A stretch of 64,000 bases of DNA from an uncultured delta proteobacterium (lineage in GTDB: Bacteria; Desulfobacterota; RBG-13-43-22), in contig CAWBOS010000010.1 of the NCBI GenBank assembly GCA_963790475.1, positions 960,001 through 1,024,000 of the forward strand, read 5' to 3'. Under the pieces are notes generated by a model that was not told the DNA's origin, searched no databases, and was given only the letters and a program-made list of their open reading frames with translations. Positions 9,292 through 25,198 of the stretch are shown piece by piece. The stretch's first letter is position 1. Every line of letters begins with the position of its first letter. The position numbers and the translations under genes were made by a program.

Positions 9292-9459
9292 GATAAATAT
9301 CCTTCTTAAGTCTTTACGGCCCGTTAAATACCTGTCGAAACGTTAAATGAAACATATAAAGTGATTATTTTATTTGTAGCTAAAAGAGGGTAGGGTGTCA
9401 ATAAATTTACTTTGATTTGGCTTGAATTAGGATTCCATTTCCTATATAAATTCTCGATC

Positions 9460-10143
9460 ATGAACTCTAAAACTTCTTTAGGAAATAAGAATATCAAGGC
9501 AATTTTATTTGATATGGATGGGGTCCTTGTGGATAGTATGAACTATCACCTCAGGTCCTGGAAGGAATTACTTGGTTCTTTTGATGTTAATGTATCCGAT
9601 GAATTTATCTTTGAACATGAAGGGGCCATGTCTACGGAAATAATAAGAGAACTTTTTAAAGAAAATGGGTACCTTATTGATGAGGAGCAAATTAAAGATA
9701 TCTATTTGACCCAAAATTCCGTGTTTATGACCCGGTATTTATCTCAGGTGAATCTTTACCCGGATTCATTGCCTCTATTGGCGCAATTAAAGAACAAAGA
9801 AATTTTGTTAGGACTGGTGACCAGTTCCAGAAGAAATCTGGTCGATCAAATATGGAAGCAAGAAGAGTTGGCCTACTTTTCCACGACTATCTCGGCCGAC
9901 GACATTGACCGCTTTAAACCCTATCCCGACCCCTACCTCAAAGCGGTTCAAGAAATAGAACAAGAGCCGATGAACTGTTTAGTGATCGAAAATGCCCCGG
10001 CCGGCATTCAATCCGCCTCTTCCGCAGGAATTTCTTGCTTTGCAATTTCCTCCACTCTTTCGGAAGAAAAGCTGTCCGGAGCACAGCAAGTCTTTCCAAA
10101 TCTTAAATCCTTAAGCCTTTTCTTTGATAAGATCATTCCCTAA
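9460..10143 (+). CDS. HAD-superfamily phosphatase (beta-PGM/CbbY-like)
   Basis: FDMDGVLVDS motif I, VTSS, KPYPDPY, IENAPAG; start taken at ATG 9460. Confidence 0.88.
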   Translation: MNSKTSLGNKNIKAILFDMDGVLVDSMNYHLRSWKELLGSFDVNVSDEFIFEHEGAMSTEIIRELFKENGYLIDEEQIKDIYLTQNSVFMTRYLSQVNLYPDSLPLLAQLKNKEILLGLVTSSRRNLVDQIWKQEELAYFSTTISADDIDRFKPYPDPYLKAVQEIEQEPMNCLVIENAPAGIQSASSAGISCFAISSTLSEEKLSGAQQVFPNLKSLSLFFDKIIP

Positions 10144-10235: not shown

Positions 10236-10804
10236 AAATTAAATTTATCTAAATTTAAGCCGTTAAAGGGATCTGGACAGACTAGCCCACATCACTATTT
10301 CCAAAACGATACATTTCAATAAGAGGATATTAGTAAAGGGTTCAAGGGGATTTCTGTGATTTATGAGTAGGATTTTTGACTTGAAATTTCGGCCACCCGA
10401 CTCTAGCGCCTGGACCGGATTTGATTTTAAACCTCCAGCCTTAGAACAAAGAAAATAACAATGCGCATCCGGTCATGACATGACCGGCACCTATTGCTGG
10501 GATAAACAATAAATCAACAAATTACAATGTTTTTAGAGTTATTGATTTAACTTTCTTGGCATAGGAATACTAAATCCTTTCAGCTCCAAGGCATATTTAG
10601 ATTATAAGAATACGATTATTCATAATAACATTTTAATAAATAATTACAAATGCATACATTGTATTAGTAACGTATCATATTAGTAAATTAAATTAAACTC
10701 AATAAAACGTAATGTATTAAATTATATTAGTTGTGTATTGTACTGTTAATGAGTATAAAATATAAATTTAACCATATAACATTACAGCCCCAAAATATCT
10801 CCCA

Positions 10805-11122
10805 TCAAATCGGAGGCGCGATAACAGCAAGAGCCCGCATATCGGTCTTAGCCTGAATTCCATGGGGGTCACTGATATCACACACCAGGACATCTCCAGT
10901 TTCGGCCGGCAGCGTTTGGCCTTCCTTCGCCAAGAATAAACCGCTCCCCTCCAGAACGATGATGCTGACCTCCCCTTCTATATCATGGGAATGGATCGGC
11001 AGGGATTGTCCGGCCTTAAGGTTGAAATTCATTACTTTCATATAGGGGGATTCATGTACTAGAAAGGTCGAGAGGGCATTGTCTTTGAATTGGTTTTCTT
11101 TGAAAACGGCGATTTTTTTCAT
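10805..11122 (-). CDS. Cupin-domain protein
   Basis: PIHSHDIEGE and PHGI cupin motifs; GGAG RBS before ATG 11122. Confidence 0.85.
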   Translation of the reverse strand: MKKIAVFKENQFKDNALSTFLVHESPYMKVMNFNLKAGQSLPIHSHDIEGEVSIIVLEGSGLFLAKEGQTLPAETGDVLVCDISDPHGIQAKTDMRALAVIAPPI

Positions 11123-11220
11123 TGTGACATTCTCCTTTTCTTGATTTGGCCCGACCATATCAGGCAAGTCAGTTCTTAAGTTTGTCGCAAGTTCAAACTG
11201 TCTCCATCATTTAGTTGATT

Positions 11221-11900
11221 TAGAAACCCCCGCCCTAAGGGCGGGGTCATGTGGACTGGCTATGCCGGTCCCGAATGGGCTTGGCTGAAAGCCCACCCAC
11301 TGCTATTTTTTCCATCGAGTTGTTGCCGCAACATCGAAAGAAAGGAGATAGCAGTGAGTAGATTCCGAAAATTATCACATACCATATGGCATTGTCAGTA
11401 TCATATTGTCTGGGTTCCGAAATATCGCTATCAGATATTGGCTGGGAACATCGGGGAAACGATGGCCAGCGGGATCCAAGCGATTTGCGGGTATGCGGGT
11501 TGTGAAGTTAACGAGTTGAATGTTCAAAAGGATCATATTCATCTGGTAGCCATGGTTCCGCCCAAAGTATCGATATCGGACTTGATGGGGCGGGTCAAGG
11601 GTCAGACATCGATGAAAATGTTTAACCAGTATCGGCAGTTGCGGAAGAAGCCGTATTGGGGTAATCATTTTTGGACCCCGGGGTATTGTGTGGATACCGT
11701 TGGAATGGATGAGGAACTGATCCGGAAGTATGTCCGGTATCAAGAGGAAAAAGAAAAACAGTTCGAACAATTGCACTTGAATTTGTAGATCATCCATAAC
11801 GCGGCACAACTCGGAAGCCCTGCCTCCTCAGGGGGCAGGGCCATTGCCCCCCTATGGGGGGCCCAGTTAAAGCCACGCCCTATGGGCGTGGATTATTTAC
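11221..11900 (+). mobile_element. IS200-type insertion sequence (tnpA only, no tnpB)
   Basis: Left hairpin CCCCGCCC-TAA-GGGCGGGG (11228-11246), right hairpin CCACGCCC-TAT-GGGCGTGG (11873-11891) with two more hairpins, Y1 transposase between; exact ends approximate. Confidence 0.88.
11354..11788 (+). CDS. tnpA: IS200/IS605 family Y1 transposase TnpA
   Basis: YHIVWVPKYR, HUH motif DHIH, FWTPGY, catalytic Tyr in IRKYVRYQ; AAGGAG RBS before GTG 11354. Confidence 0.93.
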   Translation: MSRFRKLSHTIWHCQYHIVWVPKYRYQILAGNIGETMASGIQAICGYAGCEVNELNVQKDHIHLVAMVPPKVSISDLMGRVKGQTSMKMFNQYRQLRKKPYWGNHFWTPGYCVDTVGMDEELIRKYVRYQEEKEKQFEQLHLNL

Positions 11901-11914
11901 AAAACTCAAATTTT

Positions 11915-12202
11915 CTATTTGCCCACGACTGTCTCCTTTCCCTTGGTTGCTTCCTCTATCCCCTTCAGTTTCGCCCTCAAATCGGCCAAAGCCTTTTCCT
12001 GCTCGATGAGAATGGAGACCAGGATGGTTTCCAGGGGCCAGGGACGGGAGGCATAGACCCCGGCCTGGACGTGAAGGCGGGCCAGGTCAAACAGCCGGTC
12101 CAGAACCGCCTGATCTTCCCGACGCAGGCCGCGGCGGAATTTCTTCCAGTCCTGATATTCCCGCTCCAGAATCTGGCTGAAGGGCAAAACCGTCCGTCCC
12201 AT
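11915..12202 (-). CDS. Small helical protein, MGRTV-type (resembles PolB2-associated arCOG07300-like proteins)
   Basis: MGRTVLPF...WKKFRRGLRREDQAVLDRLF...PLETILVSIL; starts 2 nt after upstream stop; family call from memory. Confidence 0.7.
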   Translation of the reverse strand: MGRTVLPFSQILEREYQDWKKFRRGLRREDQAVLDRLFDLARLHVQAGVYASRPWPLETILVSILIEQEKALADLRAKLKGIEEATKGKETVVGK

Positions 12203-12204
12203 TG

Positions 12205-12795
12205 CTATCCCTTTCTTTCGGGAAGGAAAAGGGAAGGGTATAATTTCCCTTCCAGTCCCTGACCTCCCTGGCTGACCCGGATAACCCATTGGACGGATCT
12301 GGACAGCTCTCTTCCGAAATGCCGGTTTTTTACCTGCCGGGAAATGGGACCTTGAAAAAGATAACACCCCTGCCCTCTCTCTTTTAAGACAAGTAAAGAA
12401 CGAACCACCTGGCGAAAAAGGGTCTGCCTTTCCTTTAAAGGAACCTGTTCGTCATAGAACAGGATACCCGGTCCCAATACAAAAAGAGGACCTTCCGCCC
12501 TTTGGCCGGGAAGGGTCTCGCAGAGCAAGGTTGCCAATTGGTGGCAAGTGAAGGCCCGGCTGAGACGGATCCGTTCCAGAAGGGGACGCAAAGGGGTTTC
12601 TGATAACCGGCCTACTCTGGCCACCAGATAGGGATCAAAGGATTGGGCGGCATCCACCAGAGTGATCGATTTTCCCTGAAGCGATAACTGGCCCATCAGG
12701 TAAGCGGAAAGGCGGGCCATGGCTTCCCCGAAGAAAAGGATGCTGCCTCCGGAAAGGGCCAAAGACCGCATCTTTTGCCAAGGCAAAAAATCCAT
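12205..12795 (-). CDS. Inactivated RecA/RadA-fold protein (ImuA-like)
   Basis: VDAAQSFDPY...LERIRLSRAFTCHQL matches the Rad51/RadA core; no Walker A GxxxxGKT; directly downstream of lexA. Confidence 0.7.
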   Translation of the reverse strand: MDFLPWQKMRSLALSGGSILFFGEAMARLSAYLMGQLSLQGKSITLVDAAQSFDPYLVARVGRLSETPLRPLLERIRLSRAFTCHQLATLLCETLPGQRAEGPLFVLGPGILFYDEQVPLKERQTLFRQVVRSLLVLKERGQGCYLFQGPISRQVKNRHFGRELSRSVQWVIRVSQGGQGLEGKLYPSLFLPERKG

Positions 12796-12800
12796 CTCCC

Positions 12801-13412
12801 CTACCCTACTTCCACCGGGCGATAAATCCCAATGACTTTGCCCAGAATACTCATGGTCGTTATATCCCGGCCTTTCAGGATCAGGGGAGGAAATTCCGGG
12901 TGTTCCCCCCTTAAGATAACTTTATCTTTTTCTCGATAGAACCGTTTCAATGTGATTTCCTCACCAATCCGGAAAACCCCTACGGCCCCCTGAGAGAGAT
13001 GGTCCTGACGGCGGACGATGACCTGATCCCCGGTTAAAATATAAGGGCTCATGCTTTCTCCTTGTACCCGCAGGAGAAAAACCTCTGCTCCCCTGACCCA
13101 ATTTTCCGGAAGGGAAACATGTCCTTCGGCGGATTCTTCTATCTGCCGGGGATCGCCGGCCGGAATGGCCCCATACAGGGGAACGGTACGCATCGGCCCG
13201 GGAGAAGGGATCAGACGAAGCCCGCGGGAACGGTTAACTTCACGGCTCAGGTATCCTTTTCGAGTCAAGGCCTTCAGATGATCCTGAACCGTGCCCAGGT
13301 TGATCTTAAAAAACTTTGCCGTTTCCCGGAAAGAAGGAGGATAGCCGTGTTCCGTCTGGTAATCCCGGAGATACCCTAATATTTGTTTTTGACGATTGGT
13401 AAGGGACTGCAT
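12801..13412 (-). CDS. lexA: LexA repressor
   Basis: LTNRQKQIL...GYPPSFRE wHTH, Ala-Gly cleavage site IPAGDP, catalytic Ser (GESM) and Lys (TLKRF). Confidence 0.92.
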   Translation of the reverse strand: MQSLTNRQKQILGYLRDYQTEHGYPPSFRETAKFFKINLGTVQDHLKALTRKGYLSREVNRSRGLRLIPSPGPMRTVPLYGAIPAGDPRQIEESAEGHVSLPENWVRGAEVFLLRVQGESMSPYILTGDQVIVRRQDHLSQGAVGVFRIGEEITLKRFYREKDKVILRGEHPEFPPLILKGRDITTMSILGKVIGIYRPVEVG

Positions 13413-13427
13413 GGTAGTGAATCAAAT

Positions 13428-13451
13428 ACCATACATTTGTATGGTTGTCAA
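13428..13451 (-). promoter_or_regulatory. Candidate LexA operator palindrome abutting a TTGACA -35 element
   Basis: ACCATACA-TT-TGTATGGT perfect 8-bp arms (13428-13445); TTGACA on minus strand at 13446-13451; 15 nt upstream of lexA ATG. Confidence 0.7.
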
Positions 13452-13500: not shown

Positions 13501-13639
13501 TGTGAAAATTGATGAAATAAATTCTTGAACAAAAGAAATTAACTGTGTAGTAAAAAGACAGAGAGCCGGGCTGAGGACGGATGGGTTGAGGTAGTTTAAG
13601 CGGGTGGAGGATCTATTTGCAAAAAAAGAAAGGGGCCCA

Positions 13640-15067
13640 ATGCGCAATCTCACCTTGTTGACCGATATGTATGAATTGACCATGGTTGGCGGATATCTGA
13701 TCAACGGTAAGGAAAACCAAAGGGCCAACTTTGATTACTTCTTCCGCAAAATTCCGGATGAAGGAGGGTACTGTATTGCCGCCGGTCTTGAACAAGTAAT
13801 TGATTATATCAAGAATATTCGTTTCACCTCCGAGGACTTGGCGTACCTGGAAGGCCTGGGGGTCTTTCCTGAAAAGGTCTTCCGCTATCTGGAGCAATTC
13901 CACTTTACCGGTGATCTTTTCGCCGTGCCGGAAGGTACGATTATTTTCCCCCATGAACCGATCATCCGGGTTACGGCCCCCTTACCGGAGGCCCAGTTTA
14001 TTGAATCGGCCTTGCTTAATATTATGAATTTTCAAACCCTGATCGCCACCAAGGCTTCCAGGGTAAGCACGGCGGCGGAAGGAGATCCGGTTATCGAATT
14101 CGGTCTCCGGCGCGCCCATGGTCCGGATGCCGCCATTGGGGCTGCCCGGGCGGCTTTTATCGGCGGCGCCCAGGGCACCTCCAATATCCTGGCCGGAAAA
14201 TTGTTCGACATACCGGTCCGCGGGACGGTAGCCCATAGCTGGGTGGAATCTTTTCCTTCGGAGCTTGACGCCTTCAGGGCCTATTGCCGGGTTTATCCCA
14301 AGGATTGCCTGTTGTTGGTGGACACCTATGATACCCTGAAAAGCGGGGTACCCAACGCCATCAAGATAGGAAAGGAATTAAGGGACCAAGGAAAGGGAGA
14401 ATTAAAAGGGATTCGCCTCGACAGCGGAGATCTGGCCTACTTGAGCAAAGAAGCCAGAAAAATGTTGGACCGGGAAGGATTTGAAGGGGTCAAGATCTTC
14501 GCTTCCAGTGATCTGGATGAGTGGATTATTGAAAGTATCAAAAAGCAAGGAGGCCGGATTGATACCTGGGGGGTCGGGACTAAGCTGGTAACCGCCTATT
14601 CCACCCCGGCCCTGGGCGGCGTCTATAAGCTAACGGCCATCGAAGAAAAAGGACGGATGCAGCCCAAAATCAAACTATCGGACAATCCGGAAAAGATAAC
14701 CAATCCCGGATTGAAAAAAGTGATTCGATTTTTTGATGATTCGAATTTAATGCGCGGTGACATTATGTTTCTGGAAGAAGAGCTCCTGGAGGCTAAACCG
14801 TTACGGGGATACCATTCTGTTATCCCAAATATCAGCAAAGTATATCCCCTTCAATTCTCAAGGCAGGAGTTGTTGGTTCCGATTTTTCAAGGAGGCCGGC
14901 TGGTCTATCCCCTCCCCTCCTTGAAGGAAATCCAAGAAAACAGGCGGCGGAATTTGGATCAATTGGGTTTTGAATTTAAACGATTTAAGAATCCCCATAT
15001 TTATCATGTAAGCTTGAGCAAGCAATTGATGAAAACCAAAAAGGATCTGTTACGAGAAGTTATTTAG
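13640..15067 (+). CDS. pncB: Nicotinate phosphoribosyltransferase
   Basis: LLTDMYELTM, EFGLRRAHG, GTVAHSWV, LLVDTYD, GIRLDSGD, GGVYKL. Confidence 0.95.
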   Translation: MRNLTLLTDMYELTMVGGYLINGKENQRANFDYFFRKIPDEGGYCIAAGLEQVIDYIKNIRFTSEDLAYLEGLGVFPEKVFRYLEQFHFTGDLFAVPEGTIIFPHEPIIRVTAPLPEAQFIESALLNIMNFQTLIATKASRVSTAAEGDPVIEFGLRRAHGPDAAIGAARAAFIGGAQGTSNILAGKLFDIPVRGTVAHSWVESFPSELDAFRAYCRVYPKDCLLLVDTYDTLKSGVPNAIKIGKELRDQGKGELKGIRLDSGDLAYLSKEARKMLDREGFEGVKIFASSDLDEWIIESIKKQGGRIDTWGVGTKLVTAYSTPALGGVYKLTAIEEKGRMQPKIKLSDNPEKITNPGLKKVIRFFDDSNLMRGDIMFLEEELLEAKPLRGYHSVIPNISKVYPLQFSRQELLVPIFQGGRLVYPLPSLKEIQENRRRNLDQLGFEFKRFKNPHIYHVSLSKQLMKTKKDLLREVI

Positions 15068-15603: not shown

Positions 15604-17425
15604 TTAGAAGGCCTCTGCCGGAATATCGACTGCCGAGGTGTCTTCCAGCTCCAGGGTGGCATGCCGGGAAAAGACATTGGGCAGGATATTCCGGCAGAAA
15701 TACTTTACCGTTTCTATTTTCCCGCGGTAGAAGAACCCATCGGCAGAATCGGCCTTAACGCCCTTCAACTGTTCCCGGGCCAGCAGTCCCTGTTCCAGCA
15801 GCAGGTTGGCCATAAGGGTTTCAGAGAAACAATCCAGGAAACGGGTGGCGGTCAAGGGAACCAGTCTGATCTTCTCTCCCCCAAAATACTGCATATACCG
15901 GGTTGGAAAATCATTGGTCTCCTGGGCCGCTCTGAGGAGGAGTTCAAAATCTTTTCCGAAATCCGGATCCCCTTTATGTTGATTGGCAAAGTCCATAATC
16001 CCCTGGATCCAGTCCTGATACACCTGACCGCCATTCAGGGTCAGCTTGCGGCCAAACAAGTCCTGGGCTTGTATGTAGTTGGTGCCTTCCCATATGGAAA
16101 CAATCTTGCAATCCCGGGCATATTGCTCTACCGGGAACTCTTGACAATATCCGACCCCGCCCAGAACCTGGATGGCATCCCGGATGAGCAGGTAGCCGAA
16201 GTCGGAAATATAGGCCTTGACCAGGGGGGTCAAAAGTTCCACCTGACTGAAGGCCTTATTCCGGGTGGCCTGGTCAGGGTCGTATTCCGAAATGTCGATC
16301 AGGTAGAAAAGCTTTCCGATCATGGCCCGCATGGCTTCCGTTCCAGACTTGAGGTTCATGAGCATGCGCCGCACATCTTCGTGTTGAATGATCGTTCACA
16401 GACGGCCCTCGACGATTGGTAAGCAGAGGCCCTTGAACCCTTTCTTTGGCGTATTGGCGGGCGGTGTCGTAGGCGGCGGCGGTCAATCCCAGGGTCTGAA
16501 CCCCGCAGCCCATCCGGGCCTCGTTCATCATCTCGAACATCTTGGCCATGCCACTGTGTGGTTGACCCAGCAGGATGCCTCGGCAACCCCCCTTTTCCCC
16601 AAAGATCAAGGAAGCAGTCGGAGAACCGTGAATGCCCATTTTATGCTCTATGCTGCTGCAAAAGACATCGTTAGGTTCTCCGAGGGTCCCATCGGGGTTG
16701 ACCCAGATCTTGGGTACGATAAATAAGGAGATTCCTTTGGTCCCCGGCGGGCCTCCTTCAACACGGGCCAGCACCAGATGAATGATATTATCGGCCAGGT
16801 CATGATTCCCGCAGGTGATAAAACATTTATTACCTTCAATTTTATAGATTCGAGGGTCTTTCGAGTTCGGATCGGGCACGGCCTTGGTTCGTGTGTTGCC
16901 CACATCAGACCCGGCATTGGGTTCGGTCAGACACATGGTCCCGGTCCAGACGCCGGTGTTCAGCTTTTCCAGAAACAGGGCCTTGTCTTCCTCGGTCCCG
17001 TGGTGCTCAATGACCCGGGCATTGGAAATACTGAGTCCCGGAAAAGTCATAAAGGCCATATTGGCGGCGATGAATAACTCATTGACCAATCCCGTAAGAA
17101 CGTTCGGAAGGCCTTGGCCCCCGAACTGCGGATTGCCGTTAAGGGAAATCCAGCTGTTTTCCGCCATTACCTTCCAACTTTGATGAAATGATTTGGGGAC
17201 CTTGACCTCTCCGTTGTCATAGGTACAGCCCTCCTTGTCCCCATCCTGATTGGTCGGGCCGATGACTTCCTTGCAGACCTTCATTGCCTCCTGAATGATC
17301 ATTTCAAAATCGTCCAAACTGAAATCCTTGAAAGCCTCATACTTTAAAAGATCGGCCATCTTCAGATGCTCGAAAAGAACAAACCTCAGGTCCCGATCAT
17401 CGCGATTAAAAAAATTTGTTCCCAT
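15604..17425 (-). pseudogene. Acyl-CoA dehydrogenase (~600 aa family) split by a +1 frameshift near 16396 (pseudogene or assembly indel)
   Basis: N-part GTMCLTEPNAGSDVG, EHKMGIHGSPT, MMNEARMG; after one extra A the frame continues TIIQHEDVRRMLM...QVLGGVGY...IWEGTNYIQA. Confidence 0.85.
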
Positions 17426-24852: not shown

Positions 24853-25164
24853 CCTTTTGAACATTCAACTCCTGGAACTTCACAACCGGCATATCCGCAA
24901 ATCGCCTGAATCCCGTTGCCGATCATTTCTCCTACATTCCCAGCCAATATCCTTTAGCGATATTTCGGAACCCAGATAATATGATACTGACAATGCCATA
25001 TCGTAGGTGATAACTTTCGAAATCTACTCACTGCTGTCTCCTTTCATTCGAGATTGCGGCAACAACTCGATGGAAAACATAGCAGTGAGTGGGCTTTCAG
25101 CCAAGCCCATTCAGGACCGGCATAGCCAGTCTACATGACCCCGCCCTTAGGGCGGGGGTTTCTA
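24853..25164 (-). mobile_element. Truncated, degenerate IS200 copy (left end + 5' tnpA)
   Basis: Reverse complement closely matches 11221-11531 including the left hairpin; has in-frame TAA and a 1-nt insertion. Confidence 0.9.
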
Positions 25165-25198
25165 CATCAAACTAAACCCTATTGCACCGGAGTAAATA

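Follow-up and report, generated by a model that had tools for sequence, protein, structure and literature searches.

A lexA–iRadA–PPB2 cassette without a polymerase gene in a Desulfobacterota genome that encodes PolB2 elsewhere

The DNA polymerase PolB2, an inactivated RadA and a helical protein of about 90 amino acids (arCOG07300) are linked in archaea and several bacteria, according to the main text of Makarova 2014 (PMC4104785), which adds that in some bacteria the operon includes lexA, with Leptospirillum ferriphilum LFML04_0990–0993 as an example. In the main text of Timinskas 2025 (PMC11791011) the two accessory proteins are named iRadA and PPB2, and a PolB2:iRadA:PPB2 complex is modelled at 1:1:3, with PPB2 as a trimer and one MGRT arm (the motif is described in section 3.3.1) pointing to the polymerase active site. 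Bacterial operons are ordered iRadA–PPB2–PolB2 in that text, whether or not other genes intervene or genes are fused, and the hallmarks of PolB2 are the replaced first Asp of the DxD motif and a decayed exonuclease domain. Here we analysed a 64,000-nucleotide stretch from an uncultured delta proteobacterium of the Desulfobacterota (contig CAWBOS010000010.1, positions 960,001–1,024,000; hereafter the window), in which lexA, iRadA and PPB2 form a minus-strand cassette that lacks a polymerase gene.

We conclude that this cassette belongs to the PolB2 mutasome system, which is already known, and is not a new system. What is new is the layout variant, a split arrangement that is not found in the main text of either paper. 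A preliminary description of the DNA had singled out the cassette as a poorly described system, which no longer holds computationally: iRadA, PPB2 and the PolB2 mutasome were already named, with published structural models. The survey that the main text of PMC11791011 describes started from polB2 and the five genes to either side, and so could not find polymerase-less operons. On iRadA, PPB2 or the PolB2 mutasome, our literature search found only that 2025 paper and a 2026 Sulfolobales review, and it found no experiments on the bacterial mutasome; those in the main texts of PMC4104785 and PMC11791011 concern Sulfolobus only, beside computed models.

The cassette probably supplies a LexA repressor and two noncatalytic subunits of a bacterial PolB2 translesion mutasome in a split layout, for which a polymerase encoded elsewhere in the genome, and itself under LexA control, would act in trans. 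Below, G000 denotes the genome of the window (6.34 Mb in 20 contigs, contamination estimate 9.68%), other G numbers sampled relatives, L numbers fetched loci and C numbers contigs; the window lies on C10 (2.02 Mb).

The cassette and its relatives

The three genes are tightly packed, with gaps of 5 nt between lexA1 and iRadA (12796–12800) and 2 nt between iRadA and PPB2 (12203–12204), so that the open reading frame (ORF) coordinates agree with what the preliminary description had read from the letters. Its identifications of the products as an intact LexA, a RadA-core protein without Walker A and a 95-amino-acid helical protein of MGRTV type also withstood the profile and structure searches that follow.

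LexA1 matches TIGR00498 over residues 1–200 with 170.7 bits (2.9e-50; cut-off 110.95), and its two domains are complete (PF01726, LexA_DNA_bind, 1–65 of 65; PF00717, Peptidase_S24, 1–116 of 116). By these matches it is an intact LexA, with a winged-helix DNA-binding domain and a predicted self-cleaving S24 domain.

Searched singly, the 196- and 95-amino-acid proteins gave no Pfam or NCBIfam match. A large protein search returned 81 homologues of iRadA, nearly all unnamed and from Thermodesulfobacteriota-type metagenome bins. The family profile (33 members) matched Pyrococcus RadA in the PDB (E = 2.6e-10), together with further RadA, DMC1 and Rad51 chains. The AlphaFold2 (AF2) model (predicted local distance difference test, pLDDT, 89.2; predicted template modelling score, pTM, 0.87) had DMC1, RadA and RAD51 ATPase cores as its best Foldseek matches (query template modelling score, TMq, 0.65–0.73). 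At 196 amino acids the protein is a core only, without the N-terminal helical domain. As read from the sequence, GxxxxGK[ST] is not present in it, and in the profile–PDB alignment the conserved LGP of the family aligns with VDS of RadA, where, as we read it, the Walker B strand ends, with the Asp there changed to Gly. Because the first motif is missing and the Walker B Asp is replaced, ATPase activity of the usual kind is ruled out for this protein, which by profile and predicted fold is a RadA core. A beta-clamp motif in its C terminus (LYPSLFLP) was considered and rejected; the likeness to QLxLF is loose and the stretch is conserved in close relatives only.

The order of lexA and then an inactive RecA-fold gene bears a superficial likeness to imuA–imuB–dnaE2 cassettes, in which the RecA-fold protein would be ImuA. 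This assignment is almost certainly wrong. Both profile and fold point to archaeal and eukaryotic RadA/Rad51/DMC1, and the conserved partner gene of the cassette encodes a B-family polymerase. Moreover, G000 has a single PolIII-alpha match (PF07733), with no dnaE2 found in the PolIII-alpha profile search, and a single Y-family match (PF00817, IMS), neither of them near the window.

Translation of PPB2 from an internal ATG at 12202 of the listed minus-strand ORF gives the 95-amino-acid MGRTV protein. Residues G2, R3, T4 and V5 are invariant in 31 aligned sequences, and the AF2 model has three helices (8–24, 28–51 and 56–94) behind a free N-terminal stretch (1–7). Every one of 936 homologues is tagged PF26485 in a precomputed table; we found no mention of PF26485 in the literature searched.

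Among 401 sampled genomes of the phylum, PPB2 was detected in 62, limited to a few families. Flanks were taken for 58 loci from 57 of the 61 other genomes with PPB2, and four with partial or weak PPB2 matches were omitted (G167, G248, G262 and G334). lexA and iRadA lie upstream of PPB2 on the same strand in 50 of the 58 loci; of the remaining eight, seven break off upstream before lexA could be seen, and the last is a second PPB2 copy standing alone. Judged from gene order, the lexA–iRadA–PPB2 arrangement is conserved and chance is excluded. A PolB gene lies directly downstream, starting at most 800 nt from the PPB2 start, in 44 loci and 3.2–9.1 kb downstream of PPB2 in four; no PolB gene was found within 4.2–9.7 kb of PPB2 in seven, and three were too short to judge.

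Two loci from another family carry lexA–iRadA–PPB2 with no PolB2 within 5 kb downstream (G227, L095, in which lexA matches residues 1–43 only, and G358, L097); cassettes without a polymerase gene thus occur outside the window's family too. Such loci would also fit an iRadA–PPB2 pair that works without PolB2, for example with another polymerase (G000 has one of the Y family) or in fork processing, as would the additional arCOG07763–arCOG07300 two-gene operons reported for several haloarchaea in the main text of PMC4104785. We consider such a role very unlikely in view of the 44 loci in which PolB2 adjoins PPB2, the presence of PolB2 genes in G000 and the conserved MGRT arm, which the main text of PMC11791011 models in a cleft to which PolB2 contributes. 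No other polymerase was seen in association with the iRadA and PPB2 genes.

Loss of polB2 from the locus and PolB2 genes elsewhere

Two genomes of the same genus retain a polymerase gene at this position. The order in G105 is NAPRT–lexA–iRadA–PPB2–polB2–HAD, and in G138, in which the contig ends inside iRadA, it is iRadA–PPB2–polB2–HAD. NAPRT adjoins lexA in G105, G258 and G199, at 85–89% identity to the window NAPRT. The alignment of the window with G105 runs through PPB2 to 11962 and resumes at 10243 through HAD; between the aligned blocks G105 has 3.2 kb with polB2, and the window has 1.7 kb with a cupin gene and an IS200 insertion sequence (IS). The cupin gene has no counterpart at the same position in L037, L038, L057 and L058. 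No polB2 gene or remnant was found between the window PPB2 and HAD (best score, E = 8.6). The comparison shows that the ancestral layout was lexA–iRadA–PPB2–polB2 and that the cognate polB2 was lost from the window locus, because G105 and G138 carry polB2 there and the window keeps no remnant of it.

The IS200 transposase TnpA is well supported (NF033573, 2.2e-42; Y1_Tnp, 1.4e-38). Five further copies in G000, 99.7–99.9% identical, set the ends of the element at 11206/11210 and 11900. Loose ends of metagenome contigs from four contig sets, at 11210/11215 and 11900/11903, agree with these ends; among these contigs, which are short fragments, none spans the PPB2–IS200 junction and none has an empty site. 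The near-identity of the six copies suggests recent transposition. A role of the IS200 as the cause of polB2 loss, although possible, is not supported: in same-genus genomes that lack the insertion here, polB2 is likewise separated or missing.

The preliminary description had noted that the cassette lacks a polymerase gene and that the IS ends about 15 nt past the last stop (14 nt by our coordinates, with the IS end at 11900 and the stop at 11915), and had supposed that the polymerase was lost or displaced by the IS, or that the module acts in trans on a polymerase encoded elsewhere. The absence extends, remnants included, to the next conserved gene, and the loss stands, with the part assigned to the IS left unsupported. 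A PolB2 encoded elsewhere was indeed found, in two intact copies and one cut short, and the association that the description gave for RadA-like and arCOG07300-like genes with PolB2, sometimes with lexA, is borne out by the two papers cited above, as far as their main texts go, and by the locus counts.

Across the window's family the PPB2–polB2 junction is unstable, as judged from gene positions: inserts of 3–9 kb separate the two genes in G286, G384, G312, G360 and G402, and polB2 is on separate contigs in G258, G199 and G031. By eye, it resembles a hot spot at which mobile or defence cargo inserts.

Elsewhere in the window, a partial IS200 copy (24853–25176; 324 nt, 90% identical) lies inverted, 13 kb from the full copy. 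In the 8–9-kb inserts of G384 (L037:10356–18675) and G312 (L039:10212–18458), inspection by eye showed SPPY/DPPY methyltransferase-like motifs in ORFs, and a pair of small genes reminiscent of a toxin–antitoxin system.

The PolB2 genes of G000 are listed in Table 1. On C10, polB2b and polB2c' are 980 kb and 617 kb from the cassette; polB2a is on C15. The encoded LexA2 is 61% identical to LexA1, and the LexA proteins of family f1, including LexA2 and LexA3 and whether linked to the cassette or to polB2, form a single clade (support 100/100). PolB2a and PolB2b have a Pfam DNA_pol_B match; no exonuclease-domain Pfam match was found in the PolB2 proteins of G000 or in the operon-linked ones examined. 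In both sets motif C reads HGLTD, with the first Asp of DxD replaced. PolB2a and PolB2b keep the loop LDRD/E with the stretch preceding it and all residues invariant among 19 PolB2 sequences. They are 84% identical to each other, with a ratio of non-synonymous to synonymous substitution rates (dN/dS) of 0.12, and 37–47% identical to operon-linked PolB2 of other families.

We considered and rejected the possibility that PolB2a or PolB2b is the displaced cognate polymerase. Their identity to intact PolB2 of same-family genomes is 59–66%, compared with 84–92% for the cassette proteins (LexA1 86–92%, iRadA 84–87% and PPB2 88–89% identical to G384, G286 and G105). Because the polymerase identity is so far below that of the cassette, PolB2a and PolB2b represent a separate lineage of lexA–polB2 two-gene units; comparable pairs occur in G406 and G407. 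The window iRadA–PPB2 is the sole copy of this two-gene set in G000. On gene content, the mutasome set is complete in the genome and incomplete in the window operon.

The lexA2–polB2a unit is preceded, at a distance of 1 kb, by a DUF72 gene (C15:183575–184570; L101:5576–6571; Pfam 3.1e-20), and DUF72 is enriched near polB2 according to the main text of PMC11791011. Downstream of lexA3–polB2c' are ORFs without a Pfam match, one of them of 1,056 amino acids.

The contamination estimate, the position of polB2a on a different contig and the greater divergence of the PolB2 copies than of the cassette from the genus could reflect a binning or assembly artefact, in which the PolB2 loci come from other organisms and the host has no PolB2. 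We regard this as highly improbable: polB2b and lexA3–polB2c' share the 2.02-Mb contig of the window, and LexA2 and LexA3 belong to the same fully supported clade as the other family-f1 LexA proteins.

Candidate operators and a proposed supply of the polymerase in trans

The lexA1 promoter consists of TTGACA, a 17-nt spacer that contains the palindrome CCATACAAATGTATGG, and TATTTG; owing to its weak −10, the promoter scan gave it no score. A perfect box of this type (type A, CCATAC-N4-GTATGG) has one copy in the 6.34 Mb of G000, in the lexA1 promoter. The identical box stands at the same position upstream of lexA in seven of the nine family-f1 loci, and the TTGACA hexamer is likewise present in seven of nine. 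The best promoter-framed near-copy in G000, CCATACAGACGTATAG (C10:1951620), is arranged as TTGATA–box–TATTAT before polB2b, and the lexA remnant there has the recognition region KINLGT, as LexA1 does, and not KVYPNS, as in LexA2. Before lexA2 and lexA3, CTGTACAAATGAACAG occupies the same promoter frame as the lexA1 box, and the recognition region reads YPNS. A perfect type-B box (CTGTAC-N4-GAACAG) has two copies in G000, before these two genes; we take it to match the E. coli-type pattern CTGT-N8-ACAG. Within the family, CTGTAC boxes are paired with YPN(S/A/T) and CCATAC boxes with NLGT, YPGS or YPAT recognition regions. The putative operators have diverged across the phylum while the operon layout persisted.

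Palindromes in lexA promoters vary by clade (L051, L052–L056 and L043–L049), and G048 has CTGAAC-N4-GTTCAG. Family f51 has long ATGTATA...TATACAT palindromes before lexA, and families f10 and f12 have ACTAAAC/AGTATAC...GTATAG types.

We propose that LexA1 would bind two sites, the CCATAC-N4-GTATGG of its own promoter and, before polB2b, the copy with one mismatch. On DNA damage, RecA-stimulated self-cleavage of LexA1 would derepress the cassette and polB2b together, and iRadA and PPB2 would assemble in trans with PolB2b, possibly also with PolB2a. The resulting PolB2–iRadA–PPB2 complex would extend DNA past lesions in an error-prone manner. PolB2a would be under LexA2 through the different box CTGTAC-N4-GAACAG, with LexA2 and LexA3 each repressing its own unit. 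The sole indirect sign of induction by damage is the operator-like palindrome in the lexA1 promoter.

A function of the cassette in trans is plausible, because its genes are intact, invariant residues are kept, an operator class is shared and dN/dS is 0.10–0.29 for lexA1, iRadA and PPB2 against four same-genus orthologues (0.11–0.14 for lexA1), a value that averages over the whole divergence and does not measure constraint since the loss of polB2.

That averaging is the first of several points that weigh against supply in trans. The box before polB2b has one mismatch in one half-site. LexA1 binding, induction by damage and assembly of PolB2:iRadA:PPB2 are steps that we infer from sequence. A complex prediction for PolB2b with iRadA scored nonspecifically, with one unrelated control nearly as high, and counts neither for nor against binding. 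PolB2a and PolB2b are about 35% diverged from the polymerase beside which this iRadA and PPB2 evolved, so that compatibility is assumed. With contamination estimated at 9.68%, polB2a on C15 might derive from a relative that was binned together with this organism; the window contig itself carries polB2b and polB2c'. In addition, recA (C10:1024991–1025779; L068), about 1 kb past the window end and 52 kb from the cassette, has neither a CCATAC- nor a CTGTAC-type box in the 300 nt upstream, and the LexA proteins of the cassette and the polB2 units may be purely local regulators. Finally, stops break up polB2 in G286, G336, G406 and G407, only fragments of it were found in G229, and none was found in G070, G405 and G169 (same genus); the PolB2 system is visibly dispensable in the window's genus.

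A global SOS role, with a wider LexA regulon, was considered separately and rejected for lack of evidence: scans that allowed 1–2 mismatches gave many hits without promoter context, and recA has no box in its upstream 300 nt.

This decay in several relatives, which extends to iRadA in G229 (a match to residues 3–148 only), keeps alive the explanation that lexA1–iRadA–PPB2 is an orphan remnant, functionless after the loss of polB2 and not yet decayed. The polymerase gene is gone from the locus and an active IS200 sits 14 nt downstream of PPB2, as such a remnant might suggest. We nevertheless judge it unlikely. The three ORFs are intact and keep all family-invariant residues, relatives have the identical promoter and operator, the dN/dS values given above are low for all three genes, and two intact, selectively constrained PolB2 genes persist in G000.

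More tentatively, the mutasome with its polymerase in trans could be one instance of a modular, partly orthogonal SOS mutasome, a broader picture that we find possible but doubtful. Control would be split between two LexA classes. In class A, a KINLGT LexA with the box CCATAC-N4-GTATGG would control the accessory subunits and one polymerase gene; in class B, a YPN(S/A/T) LexA with the box CTGTAC-N4-GWACAG would control another polymerase gene. lexA–polB2 units, of which G000 has three copies and fragments, with more in G406 and G407, would spread, decay and plug into the resident iRadA–PPB2. Mobile cargo would insert repeatedly at the PPB2–polB2 junction and so drive the operon apart.

Table 1 Positions of the cassette, its promoter elements and neighbours in the window, and of PolB2 genes on contigs of the same genome
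Feature	Position	Strand	Description
lexA1	12801–13412	minus	203 amino acids, intact SOS-type repressor; TIGR00498, LexA_DNA_bind, Peptidase_S24
iRadA	12205–12795	minus	196 amino acids, RadA/Rad51 core without ATPase motifs
PPB2 (arCOG07300 family)	11915–12202	minus	95 amino acids, three helices, N-terminal MGRTV arm
lexA1 promoter, −35-like hexamer TTGACA	13446–13451	minus	read from sequence
Candidate LexA operator, perfect palindrome CCATAC-AAAT-GTATGG	13429–13444	minus	inverted repeat; putative LexA-binding site
lexA1 promoter, weak −10 TATTTG	13423–13428	minus	follows a 17-nt spacer filled by the operator
IS200/IS605-family element	11206–11900	plus	tnpA ORF 11249–11788; 14 nt downstream of the PPB2 stop
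Cupin_2 gene	10805–11167	minus	Cupin_2 5.3e-08; with the IS, occupies the polB2 slot of relatives
HAD hydrolase gene	9412–10143	plus	HAD_2 6.3e-28; downstream synteny anchor
NAPRT (nicotinate phosphoribosyltransferase)	13604–15067	plus	NAPRTase domains; upstream synteny anchor, divergent from lexA1
polB2a	C15:186226–188442		738 amino acids, no stops; 20 nt behind complete lexA2 (unit C15:185568–188442, L101)
polB2b	C10:1951826–1954033		735 amino acids, no stops; behind a lexA remnant (residues 9–64); unit C10:1951620–1954033, L103
polB2c'	C10:1588838		ends near residue 385; behind complete lexA3; unit C10:1588183–1590028, L102
PolB2 fragments	C15:12961–13374, C15:15274–15616, C1:152277–152405		

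Beyond NAPRT, two overlapping minus-strand ORFs (15604–17425; 383 and 256 amino acids) look like a single acyl-CoA dehydrogenase-like gene in two pieces, N-terminal and C-terminal. Towards its end the first ORF seems to leave the reading frame, and there may be a frameshift or sequencing error near 16300–16400.

Significance and comparison with described systems

Separate LexA-controlled accessory and polymerase units offer a natural test of whether PolB2 depends on iRadA and PPB2 for its function, and the same genome offers a test of whether subunits of diverged lineages can be mixed. The pairing of two operator classes with two LexA recognition variants would show compactly, in a single genome, how repressor and operator diverge together. 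In annotation, the two 'hypothetical' genes after lexA deserve the names iRadA and PPB2, and surveys anchored on polB2 alone miss polymerase-less loci.

The parallel with E. coli Pol V (UmuD'2C–RecA), drawn in the main text of PMC11791011, rests on SOS repression of the polymerase, on a subunit from the RecA family and on a small one with an N-terminal arm at the active site. The systems differ in that Pol V has a Y-family polymerase and uses the active RecA of the cell, where the PolB2 mutasome has a dedicated dead paralogue, and in that UmuD is unrelated to PPB2. The imuA–imuB–dnaE2 cassettes are likewise LexA-controlled multigene translesion modules with an inactive RecA-like protein; they are built around another polymerase family, whose dnaE2 was not found in G000, whereas iRadA is of the RadA/Rad51 type.

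Closer are the haloarchaeal arCOG07763–arCOG07300 operons described in the main text of PMC4104785, which, like the window cassette, combine iRadA and PPB2 without an adjacent PolB2. They are archaeal, lack lexA and are extra copies beside a full operon; the window holds the only copy, in a bacterium, with its own LexA and operator.

Closest is the bacterial PolB2 operon. The window shares with it the lexA, iRadA and PPB2 families, their order and orientation with lexA at the head, the MGRT arm and an iRadA without N-terminal domain or ATPase motifs, and the PolB2 proteins of G000 share the missing first Asp of DxD and the lack of an exonuclease Pfam match. It differs in that the window operon has no polymerase gene, and polB2 is found instead in separate units headed by lexA or a lexA remnant, with two operator classes.

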